DNA of 63,718 nt, counting the filler, from Rhabdomonas costata (lineage: Eukaryota): the NCBI GenBank assembly GCA_019059605.1. It is 48 parts of 48 records of this genome, joined end to end, with 100 filler letters (N's around TTAATTAATTAA, not from the genome) between each part and the next. Parts side by side here need not be neighbours in the genome. Positions count along the whole stretch, not along the records: positions 5,321 to 6,551 come from JAHMHO010022700.1; 47 more parts are not named here. One strand, 5' to 3'. Below are positions 5,321 to 59,994 of the stretch, piece after piece. The translations under genes were made by a program, and so were the position numbers. The number at the start of each line of letters is the position of its first letter. Positions within the stretch are counted from its first letter, which is position 1. The notes under the pieces were generated by a model, which saw nothing but the letters and a program-made list of their open reading frames with translations, searched no databases and was not told the DNA's origin.

Positions 5321-6551
5321 CGGCACGAGGAGCGCAGCTCAGTGTTTGATTGTCGCGTATCACTTTGTGGCACGTGGTAACAGAGGAAGTGTACGACCTA
5401 ATTTGGGCAGCGTGGGTAGTGAAGGAATCCAGTGACGCGTGGTGCACATTGAGTACAGGGTGCACCAGGAAAAGATCCGACTTCAAATTTTCAGATTCGG
5501 CCAGAAGGGCCTGTGGAATAACCACCTCCAGTGTGCGTGTAAGTTTCAGAGTTCGGCAGCAGGCGACCGAGTCCACAGAGTTCAGGGGACGGTTGATTTC
5601 AGATGGTTCGAGTTCATCTCATTCACCACCCTGAGTAGATGTCAGCCCAAATCCAGAGGTGGGTGCCGATGTCATGAAATCCGCCACCTCCTAAGTCGAG
5701 CGAAGCCACGGCAACACAGATGGAACAGCCTTTTCTAACCCAAATGGCATCCTTTTTCCAGAGCATGGAGCAGCAGCAACTGGCCAATCACGACCTTCTA
5801 CAGAAGGGAAGCCACGGTCTAGGTGCGAGTCACCTAGGTAAGTCGAGGCAGCGCCCACATTGTGCAAGCAAGGTCGGGACACAGTCCAACGCAGGAAACA
5901 TCCAGAGCCATCACCACCCCCAGCGGTAGGAGCCACGTAAGTGTTCCCGTTGGAGTGTGACACGGTGTCCCTTGGCGTCTGTTTGGCTTTGTTGGTCGGT
6001 CGTTCCTTACATTTTCATTTGCAGAAGCTGTGCCCCCAAAGGTTTTCAGATGCCAAACCGGCTTGGTGAAGGCAAGTGGTCGGCGCCCCCCCACATTTCA
6101 GAAAGGCGACACTCGAGGAAAGCAGCTCCACAGTGACCCCCGGGAAGTGAATAATGGAAGCCACGGTCTAGGTGCGAGCCACCTAGGTAAGTCGAGGCAG
6201 CGCCCACATTGTGCAAGCAAGGTCGGGATACAGTCCAACGCGAGCAGGATCCAGAGGCATCACCACCTCCAGACGTAGGAGCCACATAAGTGTTCCCGCA
6301 ATATCGTTGGAGTGTGACACGTGGTAGCAGAGGATTGTTTACGACCCGCTTTTAGCGGAACGTGCGAGGAAATTCTGCCAGCTTGAGACGTGGTAGCAGA
6401 GGGATAAGTTGAGAAAGCCCTGTGCGGCACGAGGAGCGCAGCTCAGTGTTTGATTGTCGCGTATCACTTTGTGGCACGTGGTAACAGAGGAAGTGTACGA
6501 CCTAATTTGGGCAGCGTGGGTAGTGAAGGAATCCAGTGACGCGTGGTGCAC
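5321..6551 (+). mobile_element. Internally deleted LTR retroelement assembled as a 1104-bp circular or tandem unit
   Basis: The first 127 nt equal the last 127 nt (5321-5447 = 6425-6551). The LTR is 5966-6319 (TGTC...GACA). A 5'-truncated second LTR lies at 5807-5962. A PBS starts at 6322 and a gag-like stub occupies 5720-5806. Confidence 0.75.
6322..6335 (+). promoter_or_regulatory. tRNA-iMet primer-binding site TGGTAGCAGAGGAT (further copies at 6391-6402 and 6479-6491)
   Basis: It is the reverse complement of the animal-type initiator tRNA 3' end (..AUCCUCUGCUACCA) and starts 2 nt after the LTR-terminal CA. Confidence 0.8.
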
Positions 6552-7852: not shown

Positions 7853-9451
7853 GGCTGGCTTGCCGCCCCCCACCCCCAACANNNNNNNNNNNNNNNNNNN
7901 NNNNNNNNNNNNNNNNNNNNNNNNNTTAATTAATTAANNNNNNNNNNNNNNNNNNNNNNNNNNNNNNNNNNNNNNNNNNNNGGGGTTTGTGCCTCACGCT
8001 TCGAGCTGTGAGAGAGAAGTAGCATGATGGAAGTCGGGTGATCGAGCCAACGCTAATGATGATGACTCTAGCGCCCATGCAAACAACGCACGCTCAGACT
8101 AATGACGAAGAAAGCTGAAAAGAAGGACAAGTGGACTGAAGCGTTTTGTCTCGCGGTTGAGTGGTTTAGGCCCGTCTGCGATAGCGTGAAAAAAGAGAGT
8201 CTTGCGTTCACAATGTCTAGTAAGTTTGGGTATCCTGATAGTGTTGGACGACCACTGCTGTTGAGTTCTCTGGCATTGCACTTTCTTGCGGGGGAGCGTG
8301 TCTATCGAAACTCTGTCGTTGTTTCGGATCAACTTGATCAGGAAAACGTCGAGTCCGTGGACGTTTTGACAATTTGGGCCGTATCCATCGGTCGAAGTGA
8401 AGCTTTCGAGCCGAGCGGGCGGTTCACGATTTCAGAGCATGATGGGATCTACTCCAATGAAAGAAAGCGGAACGTTGTCCCGGCACCGACTGCCAATCCG
8501 AGAGATTTATCATTGCCTCGAGCTCCTGCGGGGCTTTGCTCTCGTCAATGGGTTTGGTGTCATGAACGGTGGATGGGGAAAGAGAGATCCAGTGACGGCA
8601 TCCAACGCCGTGGCCACAACGCTCGTCATCCTGTCTGGTCCACTCGCTTCCCATTAGCAGGGTGACGAGATAAGCTTATGCGGGAAGGGCTGAGTGAAGA
8701 GCCCCCACAAGGACGTAAAAAAAAAAGAGGTATCGCAAAGCACTGGACGGCAAGATCCAATTCTTTTGGAGACCCGCAGACGTTTTGCTGTTTGGTTGGG
8801 AGTCCAAGAAAGTTCTAATGAGAGACAGGGATGCGAAGAACTTCACAGCGGTTCCTTCTCATTCCGGAAAGTCGACCATTATGACCAAGTGTAAGGATGC
8901 GACGGACGCCGAGTATCTCTTTGATGAGCACCTTGCCCTCAGCTCGCTGAGCAGTTAACGACGCGAGCAAAAACAGTTGATGCCCGAAGTTCGGATTGCG
9001 CGAGGACAACGGGAAGTTGCTACCGGAGGTCGGGTTCAGCTGGCCCAGGCGAGATCAGAAAAGAAATAAAAAAAGGCCCTCTGCCGTTTCGCACCTGCTG
9101 CATGCGATACTCAGATGGAGAGCTAAAATCACGGATAGCAGCCATGGCTGTGACCGATAGAGACTCGGTTGACATTGATGAGGGAGCAAAGGTACTGAGG
9201 GTCACCAACCCNNNNNNNNNNNNNNNNNNNNNNNNNNNNNNNNNNNNNNNNNNNNTTAATTAATTAANNNNNNNNNNNNNNNNNNNNNNNNNNNNNNNNN
9301 NNNNNNNNNNNGTAATAAAGAGGTTAACAAACCCAAAGGAAATGGCATGACGTGCTGTTATGCTATCACGCATGCTACCGCGTGCACAAAACAAAAGCAA
9401 AAAAATCGAATAAGAGAAGTTAGCAACTCTTCCCACAATTCTTCGACACAC

Positions 9452-10159
9452 CTTCTGCACTGCAATCCTGTTTTGGGAACTGAAAGTGCAAATTCCTCCA
9501 GCTTCATCCGAATTTGTGGTAGCCGGCACCCACATCAAGACGTGGGTTTGGCACGGCTGGAAAGCAGGAAACCACTTCACGGAAAGGCTTCCCACGTCTT
9601 TGAAGCCACTTTTTAAAAAGAGTTGGTACGACGCTTTGTTGTTATACGGTTCCGGGCTGTACACCGTTTCAGCCACTAGGCCACCAGGGCACTCAGCCTT
9701 GCACCTGTCCAAGAGCTTCCTTCCTACCCCCTTTCCTCTCAGGCCGCGACGCACGGCTATCTGCTGGATGTACTTCACCCTCCCCTCAGACAGAAAGCGG
9801 TGCCATTGCTCAGTCGAGAGTGCTTCCGAAAGCGCGAAAACACCCTTGTCCTCGGTCTTGTACGTATCTTGGAAGTGACTGACGGGCCCCAGGATCGCGT
9901 ATCCTGCCAGCTGTCTCCCCAAGCCATCTTTGACAACCGACGCCGTGACAATTGAACCGTGTTCTTGGGTCAAGCTGGCCTTGAAAACTTCAGCATCCAA
10001 TTCCCCCACTAGGAATCCACCGTTCGTGTCCCCTGGCACAAGCCCTTCGGTAGACTTCCTGTTGATCAAAAGAGGGCGTTGAAGCTCAATGACCTCGTTG
10101 ATCAGCATGACCACATCAGCATCGTCAAAATGAGTACAGCCCATTAGCACTTCCGCCAT
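9452..10159 (-). CDS. GNAT-family N-acetyltransferase in a single 236-codon exon
   Basis: The acetyl-CoA motif YIQQIAVRRGLRGKGVGRKLL and NNKASYQLFLKSGF are present. ATG is at 10159 and the probable donor is AAG|GTGTGT. Confidence 0.85.
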
Positions 10160-10456
10160 GGAGTTCAACAAAGCCAAAGCAAACGACACAGACAACAACG
10201 AGGACAAAGAAAATGAGGCTGGACGCTGAAAACCCAGGTTTGGCGAGGCGAGATTCGGAATGCATGCAAAACGAAACTGAAGTGCCAAGATGTGCAGAAG
10301 GGCACCGACGTCCAGCTGAATTCCTGCAGCGTACCAGCCACGAAATGGAATGAGTTCCTATCACCAATGTGAAAGAACGGAATAGCCAAAAATCGAAGAC
10401 AACGGAATGGCCCAAAAATCGCTTTTCACATACCGCCCCATGACCGTACAGCACCG

Positions 10457-10541
10457 CTATACCGTATAACGGGGTTATACGGTATAGGGGTATTTTGTCC
10501 GGGGGGGGCGTTAAGAAGGTTGTTACGTTTAACGCCCCCCC
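10457..10541. repeat. Two adjacent hairpins (14-bp arms at 10457-10487; 13-bp arms at 10502-10541), MITE-like
   Basis: Arms are CTATACCGTATAAC/GTTATACGGTATAG and GGGGGGGCGTTAA/TTAACGCCCCCCC. Confidence 0.7.
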
Positions 10542-15961: not shown

Positions 15962-17188
15962 GGAGGGGGTGGGGGTAGTGAAGTAAGAGAGAAGCAGATG
16001 GAGGGAGCGTGTTCGGGCTGTAGGTGCCTCAGAAGGCAGGCCCGCAGGGCAGGGGTGTCGAGGGGCTTGCCCATCGCCGAGGTCATTCCGGCATCCAGGC
16101 ACTGCTGCAGCGTCCCGGGGCCGCAGTCCCCGGTGACCCCGAGGATGGGCACGGAGGAGTACCGGGGGTCCGCTCGGATCCGCCGCGTGGCTTCCAGCCC
16201 ACACATCTGCGGCATCATCACCTGAATGACAAAACCAAATAAAAGGATCTGTCATAATGATGGTGAGCAAAACGCGGGGAGACGGCGAGAGGAGGAGGAG
16301 AGGGCGCTACAAATTTATAAAAGGAAACGCATGGAGCCAAATCGGAATGGAGTGGAGTGGGGTGCCTGCAGTCCGAGAGAGGAAAAGGACTTGCTGCGAC
16401 CTTCCCACTGCCCTCGCTCCTCGCTCGCTCGCTCAAAACGAAACGCGCAACAGCATACGTCCATTAGAATCACACTGAACGTGAATGCCGCAGTCTGCAG
16501 GACCTCCACCGCCTCTTGACCGTCGCCGGCCTCCACAATCCCGGCCTCTGGGAAGCCCATCTGCTGCAGCTTCAGCGAGAGCACCCGCCGGTTCATCACC
16601 ACATCGTCCACCAGAAGCACTCGGGCTTCGGCAAAGGCCGCAGGCACCGGCTGCCCAGCGGTCCTGACTTTACGGTACCGACCACCACCACCACCATCAC
16701 CACTACGACTGGTGGCGGTGGCGGTTGGAGCCTCGAAGTCCACAGTTTGCTCGCAGAATATGGTACTCGTGAGGGTGTGCTGGGGGATGCCACTGCCATC
16801 CCTGCTGCTGTCCGGAATGGTGGCAAGGGGTGCTATGATTTCTGAAGTAGAGCGGGAAGGTGCGAGGAGACCCGGGGTGTGGTCCGGCCCCGCCACCATC
16901 GCGCTAAGGGCGTGGAACAACTTAGGAAGGGTCAGCGGAAGGCTCACCGCGGGCAAGGGCACCACCCACCCGCTGATCTTCACTGGGCTGACGTGCAGCG
17001 CACGGAAGCTGCACCGCTGCCGCGCCTTGTGCAGCTCGGCCAAGACGGCTTCCGCCTCGGCGGGCAGCCGGGGAAGAAAAACCACAGCCACGGTAGGGGG
17101 CTGGGGCAGAGAGGAGGAGCATGGCGAGGCCGCTTCGGCGAGAGCTTCGGCACTCTCGAGAGCCTCGCAGCTGATGTCCATCACCCAA
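15962..17188 (-). CDS. C-terminal response-regulator receiver domain, hybrid histidine kinase-like (intron 16458-16222)
   Basis: RVLLVDDVVMNR...GDGQEAV...VILMD|VMMPQMCGLEATRRIR...PILGVTG...AGM...KP, with the phospho-Asp intact. Confidence 0.9.
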
Positions 17189-18628
17189 ACCNNNNNNNNN
17201 NNNNNNNNNNNNNNNNNNNNNNNNNNNNNNNNNNNTTAATTAATTAANNNNNNNNNNNNNNNNNNNNNNNNNNNNNNNNNNNNNNNNNNNNGTGTGGGTG
17301 TGGGTGTGGGTATTTGCGTGTAAGTTGGGCACATAGCGCGTTGGTTGTTGCCTGGATGACTGTAAGTGACTCTGTGGACTGACAGATACACGCGCGCTGT
17401 TGTCCACGGGTACTCACGAGAGGTATACCTTCGTGCCGTGTGTGGCATGGCTGACATGCTGACACCGAAACTAAGAGTTAGGCAACAGAAGTCTTTTATC
17501 AACCTACATTTATGCCGCTGGTCAGTTCACGGGGTAGACTGCCATAGCACACCTGTGAGAGCTGGCTGGCTCGCAGACGGGTACTGGGGCTCCCCAGGGG
17601 GCGAAGGTCGGTCATCCCCCGCGGCATCGTTTCCTAAAGTGCACATACTCAGAGAAGCGTATGCAACGCCCTCGGAACACTGCGTGTGCTCATTTGCTTT
17701 GTCCGCTTTAATTTAGAAGTGATTACTGTTTCCTGAAAGTGACGACCTTTTTGAACTTCACTGCGAAAAAATAGAGGGATGTCCAAATTTCTTACATTTA
17801 ATCTGAAGCGGGGCATATTTTCGGGTGGGAATTTACATGATGTAAGATATGAAGGCAGGAACATGTGTCATCAAAGGAATGTGTGGGCAGTGAGGGACCT
17901 TCTAACCATTGACCACACAACCCAAAGGACGTACCACAGCAAACAGATGGGCCCCCGGCCTTCGGAGTCGCTCCGGACGGGGTGCTCGCTGCCACCGCAG
18001 AGGGAGAACCAACGCGTCCCTTTGGGGATCGCAGAATCTGTGAAAGTAGAAACCCGAGTGCATCCAAGTCCTCCATTGGGGGCTGCCCCTATGGGGTTGC
18101 CAAAACCCCCAGACCACTATCGAGCAACTCAATAAAAACCAAAGCTGCAAGCTGTGCATGTCACCGTCTCGGGGGGCTGCACACATACAAAGGGCGGAGG
18201 AAAGCTAAAGTGAGATGAGTCACCTACAGCTGGACCTGCGCAGTGAATCCAGAACATGTGATGATGGGAAGCGCGATGGCTACCGCAATTCTCGTCTTTC
18301 TTTAAATGCGTCGACTTTTGCGATGACGGGAGAGTCCGGAGCCACGGGTTAAGGAGTGGCGCTGATCATCGGCAGAGTATCGCAGCATGAGCGCACACCT
18401 ATCTACGGATGACTCGCATTTGGTGTGCATGCCACACAAAAACCAGAAATACGTCCCACAACCTAGGCCACCGCCCCCCAAAACAAAACCAGTAAAGCTG
18501 TCTCACTCGTCCCCCAAAACANNNNNNNNNNNNNNNNNNNNNNNNNNNNNNNNNNNNNNNNNNNNTTAATTAATTAANNNNNNNNNNNNNNNNNNNNNNN
18601 NNNNNNNNNNNNNNNNNNNNNGGTGTTG

Positions 18629-19155
18629 GGGGTATGCAGCGTGACCACTTTGCAGAAACGCGCCCAGGGAGTGCGGACCATATCGTGGTCGAAAGTGGGT
18701 TCTTCAAAAGGGTTCTTAATAATATCAGTTTTTCATATCAGTTCAATTCTTCATGTCCTTTTTGTTTTCCTGTGCATTTGGGCGCCATGTGCACTCTTTT
18801 CGTTTCCCGGTGCCTTTCTCACTGTGCATCGCTGCATAGGCTGTGCTCACTCGGGTAGCCCAGCTGAGCCGCCCGCGTTGGCCGGCTACCCTGATGGGTT
18901 GCTTGGGCGCCATTGTGCTGGGCGCGCTGCAGCCTGCGTACGCCGTGGTGTTTGCTCAAGTGGTGCAGATTTTCTACTTACCTCCAGACCGACTGCGGGC
19001 GGAGGCTCCGTGGTGGTGCTTGGCGTTTCTGGGGTATGCAGCGTGACCACTTTGCAGAAACGCGCCCAGGGAGTGCGGACCATATCGTGGTCGAAAGTGG
19101 GTTCTTCAAAAGGGTTCTTAATAATATCAGTTTTTCATATCAGTTCAATTCTTCA
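18629..19155 (+). repeat. Exact 125-nt direct repeat (18629-18753 = 19031-19155) covering the splice donor and intron start
   Basis: Direct comparison; the period is 402 nt. Confidence 0.92.
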
Positions 19156-19762: not shown

Positions 19763-19846
19763 GGGGATGGATGCACGTCTGGGGGCCCAGCCCCAATGGG
19801 GACCTCCCCAATTAGGTGCTGGGGCGCCAGACGTGCATCCATCCCC
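19763..19846. repeat. Hairpin with 20-bp perfect outer arms and an imperfect inner stem
   Basis: Arms are GGGGATGGATGCACGTCTGG and CCAGACGTGCATCCATCCCC. Confidence 0.9.
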
Positions 19847-19951: not shown

Positions 19952-21181
19952 GTGGGTTGGTGCGCCGGAGGCTCAGTAGGAAACTGGGCGCGGCGTGAAA
20001 AGAATCTAATCGCAAGCAGATGGTTAAAAGCGGAGAAGTTTGCAATCGTACAAGAACTATATTGAAAGAGTTCGACGAGGAGAACGCAGTGGAGCAAAGA
20101 ATTCCAAGAAGCTCAAAGGATTCCGATGACAATGTGGTGATGGTCGAGAATGCCGCGGATTTTGAAGAAGATTACTGTAAATTGAATCTTCAGGACCTTC
20201 TACATCGAGTTGAAGAATCAAAAAAATCTTTGGAAGTGTTTTGTGGTTTTTGACGTGTTGGACTAGAAGTTTGAAAATTGCTTAACGCAATGGTTTGAAG
20301 TGTGGTGCGTTTAAAATCTTTCTTTTTTGCATTTGTTTGTGGTTTTGTTGTATTGGTTGAGTTTGTATGGTGCCGCGCAAGAGGTTTTGTGAAGGTTTGG
20401 GCTGTGGAGCTGTGTATTGTAAGTTGATTCGTACTGTTTTGCTGTTGCTATGCTCACCTTGCTTCTACGCACAAGCCTTGAATAGTGGAAAGATGTGAAA
20501 GGCCAAATGGTACAGTCACACCCCTTGAAGTGCGCGTGTTTGTTAGAAGGTGCGAATCCAAAGTACACCACAGGCAGTCGAATGCACACCCTCCACGGAA
20601 AATGGCAGCCAAACACACAGGCAATTTGCCAAGAGGGTTGGTTTTGGAGTTAAAGCCTGCGCGCCCTCGCATCCTCGTATCCCCGCCACCCCAGAAGGAG
20701 GAGAAAGCACCAGAACCGTCAGGTCACCGAGGAAAAGCTGGAGTCGCTAAGGACCACTCCCCGCGCCGCAAAATGCGGCTGAGTGTAATCACAGCCAGGT
20801 ACTTGGTGTATACCAAGGTAAGCCCCTGCAGCTCCCAACGCGCGTCACAGGAGTTCGGGAAGCGGTGATACCCAAGCCGGGTCCGCAGTCCTGTGAACCC
20901 ACCGGGACAGTTAATTGGCCAGGCAGAAGGCTGGGCCGTCACAGGTGGTAGCAGGGGGTTGGTTGGAAAACACCCTGTGCGGTGCAAAGCGCGTAGCGCT
21001 CTTTGTCGCGACAAGTCGTCGCGTGGTAGCAGAGTCTATTGGGGAGAAGTTTCGTACGATTCAGGTTTGTATAAGACCGCCTGACGCAGGGAGCCTGCCC
21101 GCGACACGCAAAGCGTTGGTCGCATTGATTGGTATAAGGCGGAGAGAGGACCTGCTCGTACAGAGTGTGAGTTGTGTCCCT
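19952..21181 (+). mobile_element. LTR retroelement segment: ORF end, purine tract, 450-nt LTR (20494-20943), PBS 20946-20964, second PBS 21024-21034
   Basis: The LTR runs TGTGAAAGGCC...GGCCGTCACA. TGGTAGCAG starts 2 nt after the CA. Sequence blocks are shared with the 5321-6551 element. Confidence 0.7.
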
Positions 21182-24104: not shown

Positions 24105-25667
24105 GTAATTGTGTATAGATGTGGGTTTGTATTGTTTGTTTTGTATCCTTCGGACATATTATGTATGCGTTGGGGAAGCGAATAGGCTGCAGCTGGGAAG
24201 GGCGGCTGCGCTGCCAGACCGTTGACGATCGCTTTTTGTCGGAAGTGAGCAGCGTTGCGTGCGCTTCCCGGAGCGCCGCGCTGGGAATGTCCATTGGGTG
24301 GCTGAAGAATGCAGTTTTCGTGAGGCTTCATGGCTGACAACAGCGAGATGCGTTCGTCTTTGATGCCCGTGTCCATGAGGCGTTCCCTTCGCATTCCTGC
24401 CTGAAAGCAAACCCTTTGGTTGATTCGTCGCCATCCTGCCCCCCGCCCCCTCCGAAGAATGTGGGTGTGAGTCTCGGGAGTGAGGAGTGAGGTATGAGAT
24501 GAGGGAGTTGGTGTCCTTGTTTTGTTGCAAGTGTTCGGACTCCATGTATCAGCTCGTCTCGGCAGCACCGCCGTATTCGTAGCTCGCGGACCTCCCGACC
24601 TGCGGTTTCCATGGCGGACATTGTGACTTGAGTGGCGTTTCCTCTCCTTTTAGGATGAAGAAATGAAGTGCGATGATGCAGTATCCACCCCGTTGAGAGT
24701 GGTGGGTAAGTGTAGCTCTTGTCCATTGCCACATAGTCAGAGCCACTTGCTGTTGAAGTTTCTTCTGGCTGTGGCGAAACCGGCACACCATTTCGTCAGA
24801 GGATCGGGGCGAGCAGCCCTCCCTACTTTCTCGAATCGCTCACTGTCGAACCAGTCGTGATCGCGCGGAATGGGAGCATTGCAGAAGCTTTATAATACAC
24901 GAAGCGATGCTCCATGTATTATATAGCTAGCTACACCGCAAACTGAGAGTTTTCGCCAGGACACACTACAGCCCCACAGGAAGACCCAGCGGCATAAATA
25001 TAGGCTAAAAAGACTTCTGTTCGAAATGTCACATACTAAATTCTCAGTTTCGGGGTGTTACTAACCTTAGAAGAACACCCCTTAACCTTCCTTTTTGTAT
25101 TCTCTGCCACACTGTCACTTCACATGGGACCATTGCATTTTTTGGTGCAATGGAAGTTGGGGGGGGGGGAGTNNNNNNNNNNNNNNNNNNNNNNNNNNNN
25201 NNNNNNNNNNNNNNNNTTAATTAATTAANNNNNNNNNNNNNNNNNNNNNNNNNNNNNNNNNNNNNNNNNNNNTTTTGTGTGGTGGTTCTTCTTTTCGCCT
25301 CCCTCAAGCGTGCACGCGGGACGAGAAAATAGAATATAAGGGAACATCATCAGTGAAGCAAACCGAAAAATGATTACATTCAGTGGACCACCTGCTTTCT
25401 CTCTAGGTGGGATCATCTTTTTTGCTTTTCTCCGTTGGTCCACCTGGGGCAAGCCACTGCGTTTGCTTTCGGCAAGACGCAGAAGACCTTCTTTGTCGCT
25501 TGTTTTTGAGGATCGGGATGTTTCGAACTCAGAATGCATCCTCGGCGACTCTCCGAAATGTTGTTGGTTGGGAAGCATCTTGCTGGGGATAAAAAAGGAC
25601 GGGCTGCATGATTGCTGTCGTGACCCCAATGGTGCAACTGGTAGGTGCCTGTGCATTTGTACCACAG

Positions 25668-26216
25668 GTGTTCACTTCCTTCTGGAGTACGGACTACACC
25701 GGGGATGTGCCCTCCAGCTCAAGGTCTCGGTACCGCACCGAATACGAAGAGCTTCAGCTCCTCGGCCAGGGAGCCTTTGGACGTGTGGTGAAGGTGCCTC
25801 CCGGCCACCTTCCCTTTATCATGTGCGGTGGTGAGGTTAGATGTGCCGCTGGTAAAAGCCTAGCGTGGTCAGGTAATTGGTTTAATAAACTTGCAGCTTT
25901 GGGTTTGTTACAATGGCCAAAGGCTGTTCAAAAGTCGAAGTTTGAGGACTCTTATATAGCGCTGCCCTCCGCTTTTGATATCCGCAAGACCAGGATAATT
26001 GCTTTCTTCTTTTTTCTCGTGATGGGGGAATTGATTCGGGACCGTGCTCGCGGGGTTTTCGCAGGTGCTGAACAAGCTGGATCTGTACGAGTACGCCATC
26101 AAGCAGATTATGCTGCGGCCGAAGAAAGCCAACGGGAAGGAGCCCCGGTACAACTGCCGCATCCTCAGGGAGGTCACCCTGCTGTCCCGGCTCTACCACG
26201 AGCACATTGTGCGCTA
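25668..26216 (+). CDS. eIF2-alpha kinase, GCN2-like (exons 25668-25793 and 26065-26216)
   Basis: SRYRTEYEELQLLGQGAFGRVVK|VLNKLDLYEYAIKQI...ILREVTLLSRLYHEHIVRY. Confidence 0.9.
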
Positions 26217-29103
26217 GTATGTTCGCATGCTCTGCGCCGCTTTCTTTTTCGGGTGGTGGAACATCTGCACTGCACCTCCCCAAGGACCAACTCGTTGCTG
26301 GGTTTTACCGCGGGAGTGGGAGTGATTTCAGAAGAACAACGAATATACCATTCCGAGGGACAGAGTTTGCCTAACCCAGTCGTACACTGAAACAGAATCA
26401 GGAGTGGTCTCGTCTCGAGCGCGCTGACACACTGCCCAACCCTGATTTGAATGTCAATATTCCCCCCGGGGCGCTGTGTGCCCTTTTTCTTCACACAAAA
26501 CCNNNNNNNNNNNNNNNNNNNNNNNNNNNNNNNNNNNNNNNNNNNNTTAATTAATTAANNNNNNNNNNNNNNNNNNNNNNNNNNNNNNNNNNNNNNNNNN
26601 NNGTTACTTTTCTGCTGTTTTTTCAATCTTTCTTCCATATGCATGTCCTGTACATGATTTAAATCACATTAATGGTGTGTTGTGCAATGCTCTTTAGGTT
26701 AGAAAAAATGACCTGGAGCGCGTATTATTGATCTGTGGAAGCACGCTAAGACTCACATGACAACCAGATATGACCAAAACCAGGCACGGCCAGATGCAAT
26801 TAACTCTAGAAAAACTTGGTTATTACCACCACAAAGATGGGTTTATATTTTTTAATATGTGGCAGCACTCAGTAATCACAAAGCACTCTGAACCGCGTGT
26901 CACGCAGTTAAGGAGTCTTCCGGAGCGACAGTAGATAGACATCTACAACAGCTATTCTCTTCAAAAAATGTGCTTTCACAAAAACACACGCTTTAGAGTC
27001 GCTGGACGCTTGAGTTCCGCAAATGCCACTTGAAGCAGAGCTGCACAAATCTGCTACACTAGGGGTTTCCTACTAACAACCATCAACGCCTTTAAAATTC
27101 CAAGTATAGCAAGTTTGTGGCCTCACATTATAGTACAATTCAGCTAACCAGACACATCGGGTCTCAGAACAACCAACCCTTGGCGACACAAGAGGGTCCA
27201 CTATACTTATTGTTGGACATTAACAGCCATCTCTTTGGAACCATCAAGTGGATTAAATTGTAAAAAAGCTCGAAATTCCAGTCTAAATACATGTACTCAG
27301 TCGAAAAAGAGGAATCACAGTAGTGTACAGTTAATTAAGCCACATTTTCTGGTCTGTGATCCAACTTGAGTGATCTGAATCTTATCTGAATATTACTTTT
27401 CACGTATGGCACTAATGCTAGGATAAAAATTTTGCAAACAAAAGGCAAAAAATTGGGCCACTTTTACATTCTGTGGGTCAATTTCAACATCGTACACAAA
27501 CACATCATGAAAACAACAAGCTTTCGTCACGATCTGTGCGCAAATTCAAGTTAAGAAGTCAAAACCTGTGACCAACCCAGGATATTTCCAAGCTTCCACC
27601 GCGAGACGCAAGCCACGCGTTGTCTGTGAGGCAATTATCAAGGATCATCAAGTTGCATTGCGGCTCGAGTCTGTATCTACATACAATCTTCCAAAAAACA
27701 TAATTGCAAAAAGGCTATTTATGCATATTTCTTTAATCGTTTTCAAGTGTTAGCACGAGGGAATTAGATATGACATTCTCGCGTTTTTTAAATTGTGTTG
27801 GACTGTAACAAGGGCCATTGTGAAAATATTTAACNNNNNNNNNNNNNNNNNNNNNNNNNNNNNNNNNNNNNNNNNNNNTTAATTAATTAANNNNNNNNNN
27901 NNNNNNNNNNNNNNNNNNNNNNNNNNNNNNNNNNGTGTTGTTTTTGAAAACACAATTTGGCGGCTCCAGCTTTTGCGAGAAAGCCTTGTAATTCCCTCAA
28001 CTGGAGTGAGAAGAAAAAAGATAAATTGTGTTGAACACAACCTACTCACCAGCTGATCTGCTTGGTGGTGTTCCTGTCTTTCCCCTGCCTTCTTTTGGTT
28101 CACCCAGGATGCCTTCCCACAAAACTTCAATGAAGACTAAGACTCCTGAAGTGTTGGAAGTTCGTATCCCTCCCCTCGGTTTTCCAGATCTCTGAGGTGG
28201 CTCTGCCGTTCGTGGTGGAGGCGATGCTGTTGCATCACTTTGTGGCTGCAGCGCCCCGTCCAGGTCTCGTCAGGGAAGAGCTAGGGGAAGAGCTGGCGAA
28301 GGAATGTTTCGCAGTTGAAAACACCTGCGCCCACACATATACCCTCCGCTTCGATAGCTTGCAGCGGAGAGTTGCTCTACTTGCACGAATGGTGTGCTGT
28401 ATAAGAATGTGTGCCGCTAAACCCTCAGGCACAGCGGAGAAGGAGCAACGCAACAGATTGGGATAAAATGCATGCCGATTTTGAGGGTAGATGAATTTTT
28501 GGGGAAACCCAGTCGGGACGGCTCGTCCAGTCTCCGATGAAAAAACGAAACGGACCCCTAAATCACTCTTCCCACTGTAGCTTCGAGAGCTTTCTGAAGT
28601 TATGCGTCTTTTCTTATACTCTTTAATGTGGTTGGTCGGTCACCCTGAGCTGAAATCCTCATTAAGCAAAATGAAGGCCGCCAAGAGGCGTGAGGTGGGA
28701 TGGGTGCGCCCACAGCTTCCCGCGAGGCCTCGCACGCCTTTGAGAGGGCCTTGCTTCCCATCGCGGCACGGCTCTCCACTGTGGGTTTGCATACTTGCTT
28801 GCGTGCTTCCCCCACTCTCGTGAAGTACAGGCCTTGGCTTGGTGGGAGGTTTCTTTGATGTGCATTTTTGAAAACGATTTTCGCAACTATCGATGCAATG
28901 TTTTCTGGATCTGCCCCCTATACCCCACCTGCCACTTGGTTGGGAGGTGGGGCCTATAAAACCAACTGCTGTCTTCCCATTATTTCCTTTTCTCCGTTCT
29001 TTTTTTCCTACGACGAGATGCACGTACCCCGTTGTTTTTTGGTATGGTTCTCCTTTCTCTGCCATTGGGCCGCCTTTTTGCTGGATCCCATTTTGGAAAG
29101 GAA

Positions 29104-34224: not shown

Positions 34225-35635
34225 CTAAGCATCGAGGTGGAACCGAAACGGTGAGAAGAGGGAGGCCCACACTCCAGGCATTAAGCCATCTTCCCAAAGA
34301 GAAAGACTGAGAAAAGTTGTCTGCTCTGCATTAGTATGGAAACCCAAAGGAGAAAGGAGAGAGAGAAGACGGAAGGAGGAAGTTTTTGGATTCGAGTTGC
34401 ATCTGTTGCAGAAACCTGGCGGTGGAATAAACGCCTAAGCAACAACTTCAAACATGTCCTTATCCCCGGACGCACGCTTCNNNNNNNNNNNNNNNNNNNN
34501 NNNNNNNNNNNNNNNNNNNNNNNNTTAATTAATTAANNNNNNNNNNNNNNNNNNNNNNNNNNNNNNNNNNNNNNNNNNNNTAGGTTGCTTTAGACAGCAT
34601 GCAAGACAGTACCTTCGAAAAACTGACGTCGTCGGATAGGGAACATAGTTGGGGACAAGATCAAACTGAGCAGAATAGATTGCTTCGACCTGCCAGAAAC
34701 CGTATCATGCCCTTTTAATCCAGTTCTTCAAATGTCGGGCACTCGTCACTGATCTCGGTGTCTCTACCTCATTCACTCGTCCCTTCGTGGCCGACATCGC
34801 CTTTCCCCGATCATTTTCAAGACATGCCATTATGCGACAGGGCGTGTATTTTCCGATGCGCACCCCCATCCCAGACCACTGATGCTGAGACGGTGCCTCA
34901 CCTCCAGATATCGGGTAAATATTCGCGTGGTCTCGTTGAGCCTCTTTGCGAGTAGTGCGGGGACACTGCTGGCAAAATGACCGCCACTGTGGGGATGCCG
35001 GAAAAGGTTATGCGGCCTTGCACTCGACTGCCCGACTGAGGGTGCGGTGCAGCCGGGACATGAGCCGAGAATGGGAGTGGTTTTACGGAATGACCCCGAC
35101 CAACAGGGGGATTCCGGCAATGTAGAGTCATGGCCACCCCCGTGGTAACATAGGTGTTTGCCTGGGGTTGCGCTCCCTCTTGGAGGGGCTCACTGCGAGT
35201 CGGGGAACAGACAAAATAACAAAATATGCACGCTCGACCTCCACAGTTCCAGTGATGATGCCTGAATGCTCGTAACCCGAACACATGGCAACCACACCAT
35301 ACTGTATTGTCAATCAAGGCGACGGGTAGAACCAGGTTCTGGACGAACGACCTCGTGCTCACGAAGCACATCAATGCCGTACGATTTCACAATTTCCAAA
35401 GGAAGAAGACCTTCCAGCTGCAATTTCCATAATCAGCCAACCGAAACAAAAAGAAAGGATCTGACCATGCTGTTCAGACTTGGCAGACGGTAGGGACGAC
35501 ACACCGTGCCTAAAATGTAAACTCTGGGAAATCCAAGGGCTGGAGTTCGAAAGGGCTTTCTCCACGCTCTCCCGGCTCCCGCAAGTAGCTCCTTTGTGTA
35601 TCCTGTGGGCCCACCGGTTATTAAGTCGGTCGTTC

Positions 35636-35805
35636 TGGTGCCGTGAATACTCATGCCCGGCTCGTTACTTCACGCTTGGCTACGTCTTCCCGTCGCATCT
35701 GCTGCTCGGCCGGCGTCAAGATGACGCCCATGCGGTGCTGGGGTGCGACGGGAAGACGTAGCCAAGCGTGAAGTAACGAGCCGGGCATGAGTATTCACGG
35801 CACCA
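35636..35805. repeat. Perfect 62-bp inverted repeat with a 46-nt loop at the contig end
   Basis: 35636-35697 is the exact reverse complement of 35744-35805. Confidence 0.95.
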
Positions 35806-43675: not shown

Positions 43676-43783
43676 GTTTGACGTGTATCTCCATGCAGTA
43701 TTGAAAACCATTCCCCCGCCTCAGCCGCTCGCTCCGGGGGGGGGGGAATGGTTTTCAATACTGCATGGAGATACACGTCAAAC
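43676..43783. repeat. Perfect 42-bp inverted repeat at the contig end
   Basis: 43676-43717 pairs with 43742-43783. Confidence 0.95.
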
Positions 43784-57174: not shown

Positions 57175-57565
57175 CTCCACATAGTGCGAAATGCCTGAAG
57201 TTGCAAGCGTAACCTTCCGCGCTACGTGACGTGTGGTCTTAAACTTCCGATGCGCTGTGGTTCCATGGAAACAGGCACTATTCGTTGAGTCGTTGAGTGG
57301 TCCTCCTTCGACGATTCCAAACTGCCGCACCTCTTATCACCCTGGTCGGCCGCCGCGCAAGGAAGGCGGCGTTCTCGCCCGCGCACAAGGATTTCCGGTC
57401 TTAACTTTCGATCCATCCCCTTCGCTAAATCCGTTCTCCAGCTCCCATTCGCAAGATAAGGCGGCTTCTAACTGTGCGGCAAACCTCCTCTGAAAAACCG
57501 GCAAACTTATTCGGCTCCACATAGTGCGAAATGCCTGAAGTTGCAAGCGTAACCTTCCGCGCTAC
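57175..57565 (+). repeat. Exact 51-nt direct repeat (57175-57225 = 57515-57565)
   Basis: Direct comparison; the first copy is cut by the contig start. Confidence 0.9.
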
Positions 57566-59633: not shown

Positions 59634-59994
59634 GTATGTCGTTATATATATCGTCTATCGTTATATCGCCCAACAAAGGGGAAGACATAAACGCGCTTGC
59701 GCCAGACAGCACGACGTTTTAAAACCCACAACNNNNNNNNNNNNNNNNNNNNNNNNNNNNNNNNNNNNNNNNNNNNTTAATTAATTAANNNNNNNNNNNN
59801 NNNNNNNNNNNNNNNNNNNNNNNNNNNNNNNNTTTGTGTGGTCAACAGCCGAGAGCCGATGACATTTTAACGTTTAACATTTGACATCCCCTCCCAAAAA
59901 ATGTCATCGACTCTCGGCTGTTGACCCCAAAAGACCGAACAAGAAGACGGTAACTCTGATAATGCACACGCAAGAAAGGGAGGAGGGGGAGAAC

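Follow-up and report, generated by a model that had tools for sequence, protein, structure and literature searches.

Two assembly contigs from Rhabdomonas costata carry a short motif, reiterated within each contig, that resembles the complement of the 3′ end of an animal-type initiator tRNA-Met (tRNA-iMet), and the motif adjoins the end of a repeat that terminates in CA. Our tentative reading, held with somewhat less than even confidence, is that the two contigs represent the repeat end and 5′ leader of a diverged LTR-type family primed by tRNA-iMet, in which the extra copies would be secondary sites. The contigs lie in a window of 63,718 nt, filler included, which is the whole stretch analysed and consists of 48 concatenated contigs, each ~1230 nt. 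Two 1.2-kb contigs amount to a lead and not a result.

Putative initiator tRNA sites in two contigs

The motif TGGTRGCAGAGG, searched with up to one mismatch, has six matches in the window, on the + strand only, and all of them are confined to 2 of the 48 contigs, at 5321-6551 and 19952-21181. The mean in shuffled sequence is 0.75, and none of 100 shuffles got to six matches. A motif-like site at 35141, with 2 mismatches in 14 and no CA before it, is at chance level at that stringency and was set aside.

The first contig has TGGTAGCAGAGG at 6322 and 6391 and TGGTAACAGAGG at 6479, separated by non-identical spacers of 57 and 76 nt, which bears out the array of three described by an earlier, sequence-only reading of this DNA. 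Copy 1 reads TGGTAGCAGAGGATTGTTTACGACCC and starts 2 nt past the CA terminus GTGTGACA of the preceding repeat; the second contig has the same layout past CGTCACA. A tRNA-complementary site within a few nucleotides of a repeat end, as in LTR retrotransposons, is thus present when human tRNA is taken as the reference.

The sites and the conserved blocks between them are listed here by contig.

First contig, 5321-6551:
6322-6347, + strand: copy 1, likely the working primer-binding site, with a weaker match into the T-arm complement (comparison with human tRNA-iMet)
6391-6402, + strand: copy 2, core 12/12, overall 12/18, with the repeat-adjacent copy as its orthologue in the second contig (motif comparison)
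6418-6461, + strand: conserved spacer blocks CCCTGTGCGG (6418-6427), GCGCAGC (6436-6442) and TGTCGCG (6455-6461) (inter-contig comparison)
6479-6490, + strand: copy 3, TGGTAACAGAGG, core 11/12, overall 14/18, followed by GTACGA (6495-6500) (motif comparison)
6517-6551, + strand: two decayed motif-like stretches, TGGGTAGTGAAGG (6517-6529) and TGGTGCAC (6544-6551) (by eye)

Second contig, 19952-21181:
20786-20945, + strand: homologue of the first contig's direct repeat, ending in CGTCACA (20937-20943) and then GG (alignment)
20946-20964, + strand: copy 1, TGGTAGCAGGGGGTTGGTT, core 11/12, 16/18 with one inserted base by eye (motif comparison)
20973-21010, + strand: conserved spacer blocks CCCTGTGCGG, GCGTAGC and TGTCGCG (inter-contig comparison)
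21024-21059, + strand: copy 2, TGGTAGCAGAGT, core 11/12, with GTACGA downstream at 21054-21059 (motif comparison)

Copy 1 of the first contig agrees with the human tRNA-iMet primer-binding site (PMC1797187) at 17 of 18 bases, the reference being human and not the host's own tRNA. The chance expectation for an 18-mer with up to one mismatch is ~1e-4 per window. A human tRNAiMet reverse primer (bioRxiv 2021.12.17.473132) is matched at 22 of 24 bases with one inserted base, by eye. Judged by these comparisons, the motif complements the 3′ end of an animal-type initiator tRNA-Met, as the sequence-only reading had proposed for the first copy. ARAGORN finds no host tRNA gene in the window, and Rfam searches of the window, and of both contigs at E up to 10, found no tRNA. 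In the literature, matches to the sequence strings are tRNA probes and primers only.

The copies differ in quality. Beyond copy 1, complementarity is retained in the first 11-12 bases only, and an extension towards the T-arm complement is seen, by eye, in copy 1 only. Copy 3 has an A in its core where pairing with the tRNA needs a G, giving an A-C mismatch. The repeat terminus TGTGrCA-CG precedes two of the three sites in the first contig, and all three follow ACG (CACGTGG, GACGTGG and CACGTGG).

The second contig was likewise said to share this design, and it does. It carries TGGTAGCAGGGG at 20946 and TGGTAGCAGAGT at 21024, in the junction contexts CAGGTGG and GCGTGG, and CCCTGTGCGG, GCGYAGC, TGTCGCG and GTACGA are common to both contigs with their order kept.

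The repeat unit and its coding capacity

The two ends of the first contig overlap exactly, 5321-5447 being identical to 6425-6551 (127 nt, 100%), so that the contig is a closed cycle of 1104 nt. It follows that the motif sites at 6479 and 5375 are the same DNA and count as one site, and each 1104-nt unit holds three strong tRNA-site copies. The unit contains two copies of a direct repeat, A1 and A2, separated by two differing segments. They are 161-169 nt long, 87.6% identical over 169 columns, and start 349 nt apart. CGTTGGAGTGTGACACG terminates both copies alike, and the motif adjoins A2 only. The elements of the unit outside the leader are as follows.

5321-5447, + strand: assembly overlap, exact copy of 6425-6551, containing copy 3 at 5375-5386 (end-to-end identity)
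5802-5811, + strand: purine-rich tract AGAAGGGAAG at the start of A1, putatively polypurine-tract-like (by eye)
5804-5964, + strand: direct repeat copy A1, R-U5-like, ending in CGTTGGAGTGTGACACG with no tRNA site after it (self-alignment)
6142-6160, + strand: purine-rich tract GGGAAGTGAATAATGGAAG at the start of A2, a candidate polypurine tract (by eye)
6153-6321, + strand: direct repeat copy A2, ending in GTGTGACA (6312-6319) and then CG, homologous to 20786-20945 (alignment)
6168-6191, + strand: hairpin CTAGGTG-CGAGC-CACCTAG followed by GTAAG, with a second occurrence at 5819-5842 (read from the sequence)

The hairpin has a counterpart in the second contig at 20802-20822, where CTTGGT-GTAT-ACCAAG is again followed by GTAAG and one A-T pair is compensated to T-A.

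The sequence-only reading had placed the motif after an LTR end. Its position holds, 2 nt past a terminus in CA, and the repeat ends in CA in both contigs (GTGTGACA and CGTCACA). An LTR pair did not emerge: the sole long repeat found is the 161-169-nt direct repeat within the 1104-nt cycle, and the second contig, which does not form a cycle, is too short for a pair. Candidate LTR 5′ ends picked by eye, TGTCA at 5640 and TGTGA at 20496, were dropped as evidence because there is no significant similarity between the contigs there (score 12 against a shuffle mean of 11.8).

That reading had also tied its case to a gag-pol element carrying this leader, and none is present in the window: 0 of 249 ORFs, namely 99 of at least 115 aa and 150 of the 258 of 75-114 aa, match a reverse transcriptase, integrase, gag or other retroelement Pfam family. 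The ORFs of the two contigs give no Pfam match and include no convincing ORF. The longest stop-to-stop frame in the doubled 1104-nt unit is 127 aa, and an 84-aa frame upstream in the second contig (19999-20250) has no relative among the longer proteins. Pfam matches elsewhere in the window include a coatomer TPR domain and an interrupted kinase-like frame, and they indicate an intron-bearing eukaryote without narrowing it further. The absence of gag-pol could reflect either a non-autonomous element or contigs that stop short of the genes. The elements are known here from repeat and leader sequence, with no protein by which they might be placed in Copia or another superfamily.

Rfam gives nothing at gathering score across the whole window; relaxing the cut-off to E 10 in the two contigs adds nothing above noise. 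The predicted RNA folds of the two leaders are unremarkable, with z-scores of -1.05 and -1.32, and thus make no case for an unusual leader structure.

Duplication and conservation of the leader

The leader of the first contig contains two related modules.

6313-6398, + strand: leader module alpha, comprising the repeat end, copy 1, spacer and the start of copy 2, with 62 of 88 columns identical to beta
6470-6550, + strand: leader module beta, paralogue of alpha, starting TGTGGCACG-TGGTAACAGAGGA (alignment)

The beginning of beta, TGTGGCACG-TGGTAACAGAGGA, matches the repeat end and copy 1 of alpha at 20 of 22 bases. These alignments trace the array to the duplication, within the leader, of a module that comprises repeat end, tRNA site and spacer. 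Since alpha and beta are paralogous, the tRNA-site copies are not independent of one another. The longest run of identical bases between copies is 15, so a k=127 assembly graph could not have made the array.

Homology between the two contigs spans ~290 nt around the tRNA site. Ahead of the site it takes in ~170 nt (59% over 190 nt, E 5e-4), the hairpin with its compensated pair included, and it continues in the leader (66% over 100 nt, E 7e-5). Within each alignment tested the motif cores exceed the rest, with 18/20 against 44/68 identical (p 0.024), 21/23 against 49/78 (p 0.006) and 11/12 against 104/173 (p 0.024), in tests that are biased by the use of two elements and of local alignments anchored on the motif itself. 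To this extent the tRNA-site cores seem to be somewhat better conserved than the spacers, which is how the check proposed by the sequence-only reading turns out. Its further suggestion, that the extra copies are kept by selection, finds no support beyond a comparison of two elements in a biased test, and the extra copies are accounted for by tandem duplication of a leader module.

No relatives came from three public collections. A scan with the spacer blocks was limited to the blocks that are not tRNA-like, to keep the sample unbiased towards tRNA sites, and it returned 10 metagenome and 9 genome stretches, 0 of 19 with the tRNA-site motif nearby; all 19 were rejected as chance matches in GC-rich bacterial DNA. 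The pattern of site plus spacer had no match among viral contigs, and the one match of a two-site pattern fell in giant-virus coding sequence, in a Glu/Lys-rich repeat without a tRNA, and was likewise rejected.

Interpretation and comparison with known systems

The element of 5321-6551 is probably a non-autonomous LTR-type element. The closed 1104-nt cycle would then be a short element whose terminal repeats have collapsed in the assembly, and a tandem array or a circle would give the same shape. The copy at 6322, adjoining the CA terminus, would be the working primer-binding site, and the further copies, which arose by tandem duplication of the module, have eroded everywhere except in the 11-12 nt complementary to the CCA end and acceptor strand of the tRNA. 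If the extra copies are active at all, they may act as secondary sites for tRNA-iMet annealing and initiation, providing redundant priming or primer capture. This is the likeliest activity, if there is any, because the 11-12 nt that have been kept are the portion that a primer requires. If strand transfer takes place between the tRNA sites while reverse transcription proceeds, copy number could go up or down. Any function of the extra copies is at this stage an unproven suggestion from sequence.

The rival that comes nearest to this reading, though on balance doubtful, is that the extra copies are functionless, neutral relics of tandem duplication in a fast-changing leader, with the conservation of the cores arising from the choice of motif and a sample of two elements. 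It accounts well for copies that are paralogous modules, that have decayed to 12-14 of 18 beyond the first 11-12 nt, and that include a core mismatch in copy 3 and two more copies almost lost; blocks unrelated to the tRNA, CCCTGTGCGG and TGTCGCG, are conserved to an equal degree, and the RNA folds are unremarkable. However, every one of the four comparisons favours the cores (p 0.006-0.024), and a layout with two copies is common to contigs that can be aligned over only ~290 nt. A little less probable, and unlikely overall, is that a retroelement repeat and leader, no longer mobile, form a satellite-like tandem array or an extrachromosomal circle, seen here as the 1104-nt cycle, with the tRNA sites as fossil cargo. 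Such an array or circle would explain why the exact 127-nt end-to-end overlap closes the cycle, why the unit has two repeat copies with two different segments between them, and why it lacks coding capacity. Against it, the diverged second contig has the same design of repeat end and leader and is not cyclic, and a dispersed high-copy element with collapsed terminal repeats yields the same graph shape; an array or circle would in any case be compatible with an origin of the family from a retroelement leader.

The remaining alternatives are much weaker. Arrays of factor sites are known in leaders, as in the gypsy insulator, and the repeat unit could be a protein-binding site (a transcription-factor array or a packaging signal) with a core ACGTGG or CACGTG over the junction, its likeness to the tRNA inherited and irrelevant. 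The ACG before every copy in the first contig, with CAGGTGG and GCGTGG in the second, is what such a site would leave, but it is the whole 11-12-nt tRNA complement that is conserved, beyond ACGTGG, and this makes the idea improbable. Small-RNA targeting depends on the seed, and copies 2 and 3, at 12-14 of 18, have lost bases 13-18 on the 5′ seed side and pair only with the 3′ end of a tRNA fragment. For this reason a role of the extra copies as decoys for retroelement-silencing 3′ tRNA fragments, which the sequence-only reading had entertained, or as their targets, is very improbable; in its favour, such fragments are reported to target the primer-binding sites of LTR elements (PMC7472051, PMC12853362). 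The proposal of tRNA-bridged dimerisation in that reading is also unlikely, given that the sites are identical and all engage one and the same stretch of 11-12 nt in the tRNA. That the whole array is due to chance or to assembly is hardly credible: one of the sites noted earlier does lie inside the 127-nt overlap and is the same DNA as 5375, but shuffling never produced six matches, at most 15 identical bases in a row are too few for a mis-join at k=127, and the design recurs in an independent contig.

Among known elements, the closest in form are TRIMs, described as two LTRs enclosing a primer-binding site and a polypurine tract (PMC10886601). Like these, the present unit is short and non-coding, has a tRNA-complementary site after a repeat ending in CA, and has purine-rich tracts before the repeat copies. 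Its size, non-coding nature and tRNA site all fit a TRIM, with terminal repeats and a polypurine tract at the level of candidates. The difference lies in the leader, which here has at least three tRNA-site copies, compared with the single site described downstream of the 5′ LTR (PMC10886601). Two other classes were considered and rejected. For a retrozyme, which has a hammerhead ribozyme in its repeats, Rfam offers nothing at gathering score across the window and no ribozyme at E up to 10 in either contig. For a tRNA-derived SINE or a Helenus-type TRIM, there are no tRNA genes by ARAGORN and no Rfam tRNA, and all six motif matches are the antisense, 3′-end complement.

The textbook view of LTR elements and retroviruses is of a single primer-binding site, adjoining the 5′ repeat. 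The exceptions described pair with separate portions of a single tRNA or sit towards the opposite end of the RNA (PMC1635307). There, tRNA binding is termed multipartite in Ty1 and bipartite in Ty3. Gypsy pairs through 11 nt at its 5′ site and through another 11 nt close to the 3′ end, and working sites of that length are documented for it; a single tRNA annealed to the 5′ and 3′ sites bridges the RNA ends, and cDNA synthesis needs the 5′ site only (PMC1635307). The likeness to Ty1, Ty3 and gypsy is that several stretches of genomic RNA pair with the primer tRNA. What differs here is that the same acceptor-end complement is reiterated within ~170-230 nt of 5′ leader, which would call for one tRNA per copy. 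In copies 2 and 3 nothing but this complement recurs (12-14 of 18), and in this they depart from the multipartite type.

A bolder possibility, which we consider unlikely, is that the contigs represent a natural family with a series of sites in its leader where the 3′ end of initiator tRNA-Met is able to prime, and that reverse transcription could begin at several of them. Word-based searches of open-access texts, partly swamped by the buffer sense of 'PBS', yielded no report of a natural element in which identical sites are reiterated. If such a family exists, initiation at a downstream site would give a DNA end that still resembles an integrase substrate, several tRNA-iMet molecules would be loaded on each RNA, and strand transfer between the sites would reshape their copy number. 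Having several sites for the same acceptor end, it would inform our view of the choice and placement of primer tRNAs, of how frequently reverse transcription starts at alternative sites, and of how leaders are reshaped by strand transfer between short repeats. It would also be the natural counterpart to engineered dual-site vectors. Retroviral vectors with two primer-binding sites, reportedly described by Voronin and Pathak in J Virol in 2004, are said to show frequent dual initiation. As in the present contigs, a single RNA would hold two binding sites for one kind of primer; the vectors differ in being artificial, whereas the family proposed here would be natural.

Recurrence of the primer-site motif

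The motif TGGTRGCAGAGG, searched with at most one mismatch, has six matches in the window, all on the + strand, and the family was detected in only two of the 48 contigs (the fifth, 5321-6551, here the first contig, and the sixteenth, 19952-21181, here the second contig). Dinucleotide-preserving shuffles gave a mean of 0.75 matches, with none of 100 reaching six, and the recurrence is real, not chance.

Features of the two contigs
5375, 6322, 6391, 6479, 20946, 21024 (+): matches to TGGTRGCAGAGG with at most one mismatch; 6322, 6391 and 6479 are copies 1, 2 and 3
6517, 6544: decayed motif copies in the first contig, found by eye
6313-6398: module alpha (repeat end, copy 1, spacer and start of copy 2)
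6470-6550: module beta (copy 3, spacer and a decayed copy)
5819-5842, 6168-6191, 20802-20822: hairpin plus GTAAG, in each contig ahead of the tRNA site
Starts of both direct-repeat copies of the first contig: purine-rich tracts

The first contig begins and ends with exactly the same 127 nt and so forms a closed path of 1104 nt in the assembly graph. This end identity makes motifs 6479 and 5375 one DNA site, with three strong copies per 1104-nt unit. The three copies of the sequence-only reading (6322, 6391 and 6479) are thus present, the last being the same DNA as 5375 in the closed cycle. Since the longest identical run among copies is at most 15 bases, the array could not have been produced by the k = 127 assembly graph. 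As that reading also stated, the spacers are non-identical (measured here at 57 and 76 nt) and the second contig has the same design, with motifs at 20946 and 21024 and the blocks CCCTGTGCGG, GCGYAGC, TGTCGCG and GTACGA arranged as in the first. A tRNA-site-like string in another contig (CGTGGTAACATAGG, 35141-35154, two mismatches, no CA before it) is no more than chance predicts for a search this permissive.

The initiator tRNA match and the upstream repeat

PMC1797187 prints an 18-nt primer-binding site (PBS) complementary to human tRNA-iMet. Against this standard, which may not equal the complement of the host's tRNA-iMet, copies 1, 2 and 3 match at 17/18, 12/18 and 14/18 positions, and those of the second contig at 14/18 and 13/18. 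The first 12 PBS bases, which would pair with CCA, the discriminator base and the acceptor strand, are kept at 11 or 12 positions in all five copies. By eye, and allowing for one inserted base, copy 1 also agrees at 22 of 24 positions with a 24-nt human tRNAiMet reverse primer printed in bioRxiv 2021.12.17.473132. Chance alone would give about 1e-4 matches to an 18-mer in the window when one mismatch is allowed, and the proposed closeness of copy 1 to the tRNA-iMet 3'-end complement holds. Copy 1 begins 2 nt past ...GTGTGACA and the first copy of the second contig 2 nt past ...CGTCACA; a short gap after a ...CA end is the usual position of a primer site. ARAGORN found no tRNA genes in the window.

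The "LTR" said to precede the motif is not shown. The first contig contains a single long direct repeat (5804-5964 and 6153-6321; 87.6% identity over 169 columns, start-to-start spacing 349 nt), both copies of which terminate in the same 17 nt, CGTTGGAGTGTGACACG, and the motif follows the second copy only, being absent after 5804-5964. By-eye 5' ends of putative LTRs were unsupported. A hairpin followed by GTAAG is common to the repeat (CTAGGTG-CGAGY-CACCTAG) and its second-contig counterpart (CTTGGT-GTAT-ACCAAG), with one stem pair altered on both sides between contigs; the GTAAG directly after the hairpin resembles a 5' splice site. The second contig has two occurrences of the terminal string CGTCACAGG at a distance of 94 nt (20843-20851 and 20937-20945), with the motif after the second only, a doubling that parallels the repeated GTGTGACACG of the first contig.

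No credible ORF was found in either contig, the longest stop-to-stop frames being 127 aa (doubled 1104-nt unit) and 128 aa (second contig). A scan of 249 ORFs from the whole window, made up of 99 no shorter than 115 aa and 150 out of 258 in the 75-114 aa range, gave no match to a retroelement family. Rfam gave no match, hammerhead ribozyme included, and the minimum-energy folds of the leaders are ordinary in both contigs (z -1.05 and -1.32).

Duplicated leader modules and the possible role of the extra copies

Sensitive self-comparison showed that alpha is paralogous to beta (62/88 columns identical). The best-kept part is TGTGrCACG-TGGTArCAGAGGA (20/22), so the last bases of the repeat were also copied at copy 3; GTkTACGACC is second best. 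Only two stretches align between the contigs: about 190 nt ending just past the first site (59%, E 5e-4), and about 100 nt in which copies 2 to 3 of the first contig match copies 1 to 2 of the second (66%, E 7e-5). Copy 2 of the first contig is thereby the counterpart of the second contig's repeat-adjacent copy, and the first contig carries an additional module of some 69 nt. Judged by these alignments, the array consists of leader modules duplicated in tandem and varying in number between relatives.

Identical columns inside and outside the 12-nt cores (one-sided Fisher test)
Alpha / beta, 12-nt cores: cores 18/20; rest 44/68; p 0.024
Alpha / beta, 22-nt repeat end plus site: cores 20/22; rest 42/66; p 0.012
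Leaders, first vs second contig: cores 21/23; rest 49/78; p 0.006
Repeat end plus first site, first vs second contig: cores 11/12; rest 104/173; p 0.024

Selection on the extra copies had been proposed, and the cores are better kept than the rest in all four comparisons (p 0.006-0.024), but the test is biased, the motif having been picked for recurring and the local alignments anchored on it, and it covers two elements only. Short blocks unrelated to tRNA are as well conserved as the cores.

On the evidence of the two 1.2-kb contigs, together with three public collections and the literature, the contigs are best read as holding the repeat end and leader of a family of LTR-type retroelements primed by tRNA-iMet, and the earlier interpretation is partly supported. 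The first contig would be a short non-coding form assembled as a cycle, whether because terminal repeats collapsed or because the source was a tandem array or a circle, three origins that look alike here. Copy 1 is the putative working primer site, and the extra copies would be duplicated modules retaining a primer-competent core. A primer requires the 3'-terminal 11-12 nt of complementarity, which copies 2 and 3 retain while having lost bases 13 to 18; PMC1635307 describes gypsy as having working primer sites only 11 nt long. If active, the extra copies may serve secondary annealing or initiation by tRNA-iMet, a role favoured because it fits their conserved part. That they are plain relics is nearly as likely. 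The differing number of modules might be explained by strand transfer from one site copy to another as reverse transcription proceeds.

Two other suggested roles fare worse. Targeting by 3' tRNA fragments depends on the seed, and a decoy function is a poor fit because the seed-pairing part is gone from the extra copies. Nor is tRNA-bridged RNA dimerisation favoured: identical sites all pair with the same tRNA end, so one tRNA could not bridge two RNAs. Engineered vectors carrying two primer sites reportedly exist. PMC1635307 documents multipartite (Ty1), bipartite (Ty3) and dual 5'/3' (gypsy) tRNA binding, a single tRNA bridging sites at both RNA ends in gypsy, and PMC10886601 places the PBS of TRIM-type elements just downstream of the 5' LTR. 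Word-based searching of open-access texts, weak evidence of absence, turned up no natural element in which identical sites are reiterated. A pattern made solely of the blocks without tRNA likeness retrieved 19 stretches from metagenome and genome collections, none with the motif nearby, and viral contigs gave no relevant match.

Other features of the window

The window's 63,718 bases comprise 48 contigs, each 1228-1232 nt long, with N44-TTAATTAATTAA-N44 between one and the next, and features spanning such a spacer are non-contiguous DNA. Two contigs are outliers in G+C (15962-17191, 62.8%, with weak response-regulator matches, and 26603-27834, 39.6%; the others about 48-56%), and the assembly may include more than one organism or compartment. 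Imperfect palindromes (39-173 nt, 73-89% self-complementary) occur in five of the 48 contigs (35636-35805, 43676-43783, 19763-19846, 10453-10491 and 59834-59932), four of them at or near the end of their contig and the fifth some 50 nt further in; all five could be fold-back repeats or amplification chimeras. Exact direct repeats in two other contigs (125 nt, 18629-18753 and 19031-19155, spacing 402 nt; 51 nt, 57175-57225 and 57515-57565, spacing 340 nt) suggest more tandem or dispersed repeats in the genome.

The protein matches make a eukaryotic host probable. Among single short ORFs there are matches to a coatomer TPR domain and to an ABC transporter membrane domain. An open 348-aa frame at 9314-10357 (-) carries a GNAT acetyltransferase domain (E 1e-6). 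At 25593-26387 (+), a protein kinase-like start (LGQGAFGRVVKV) then loses its likeness, as expected at an intron.
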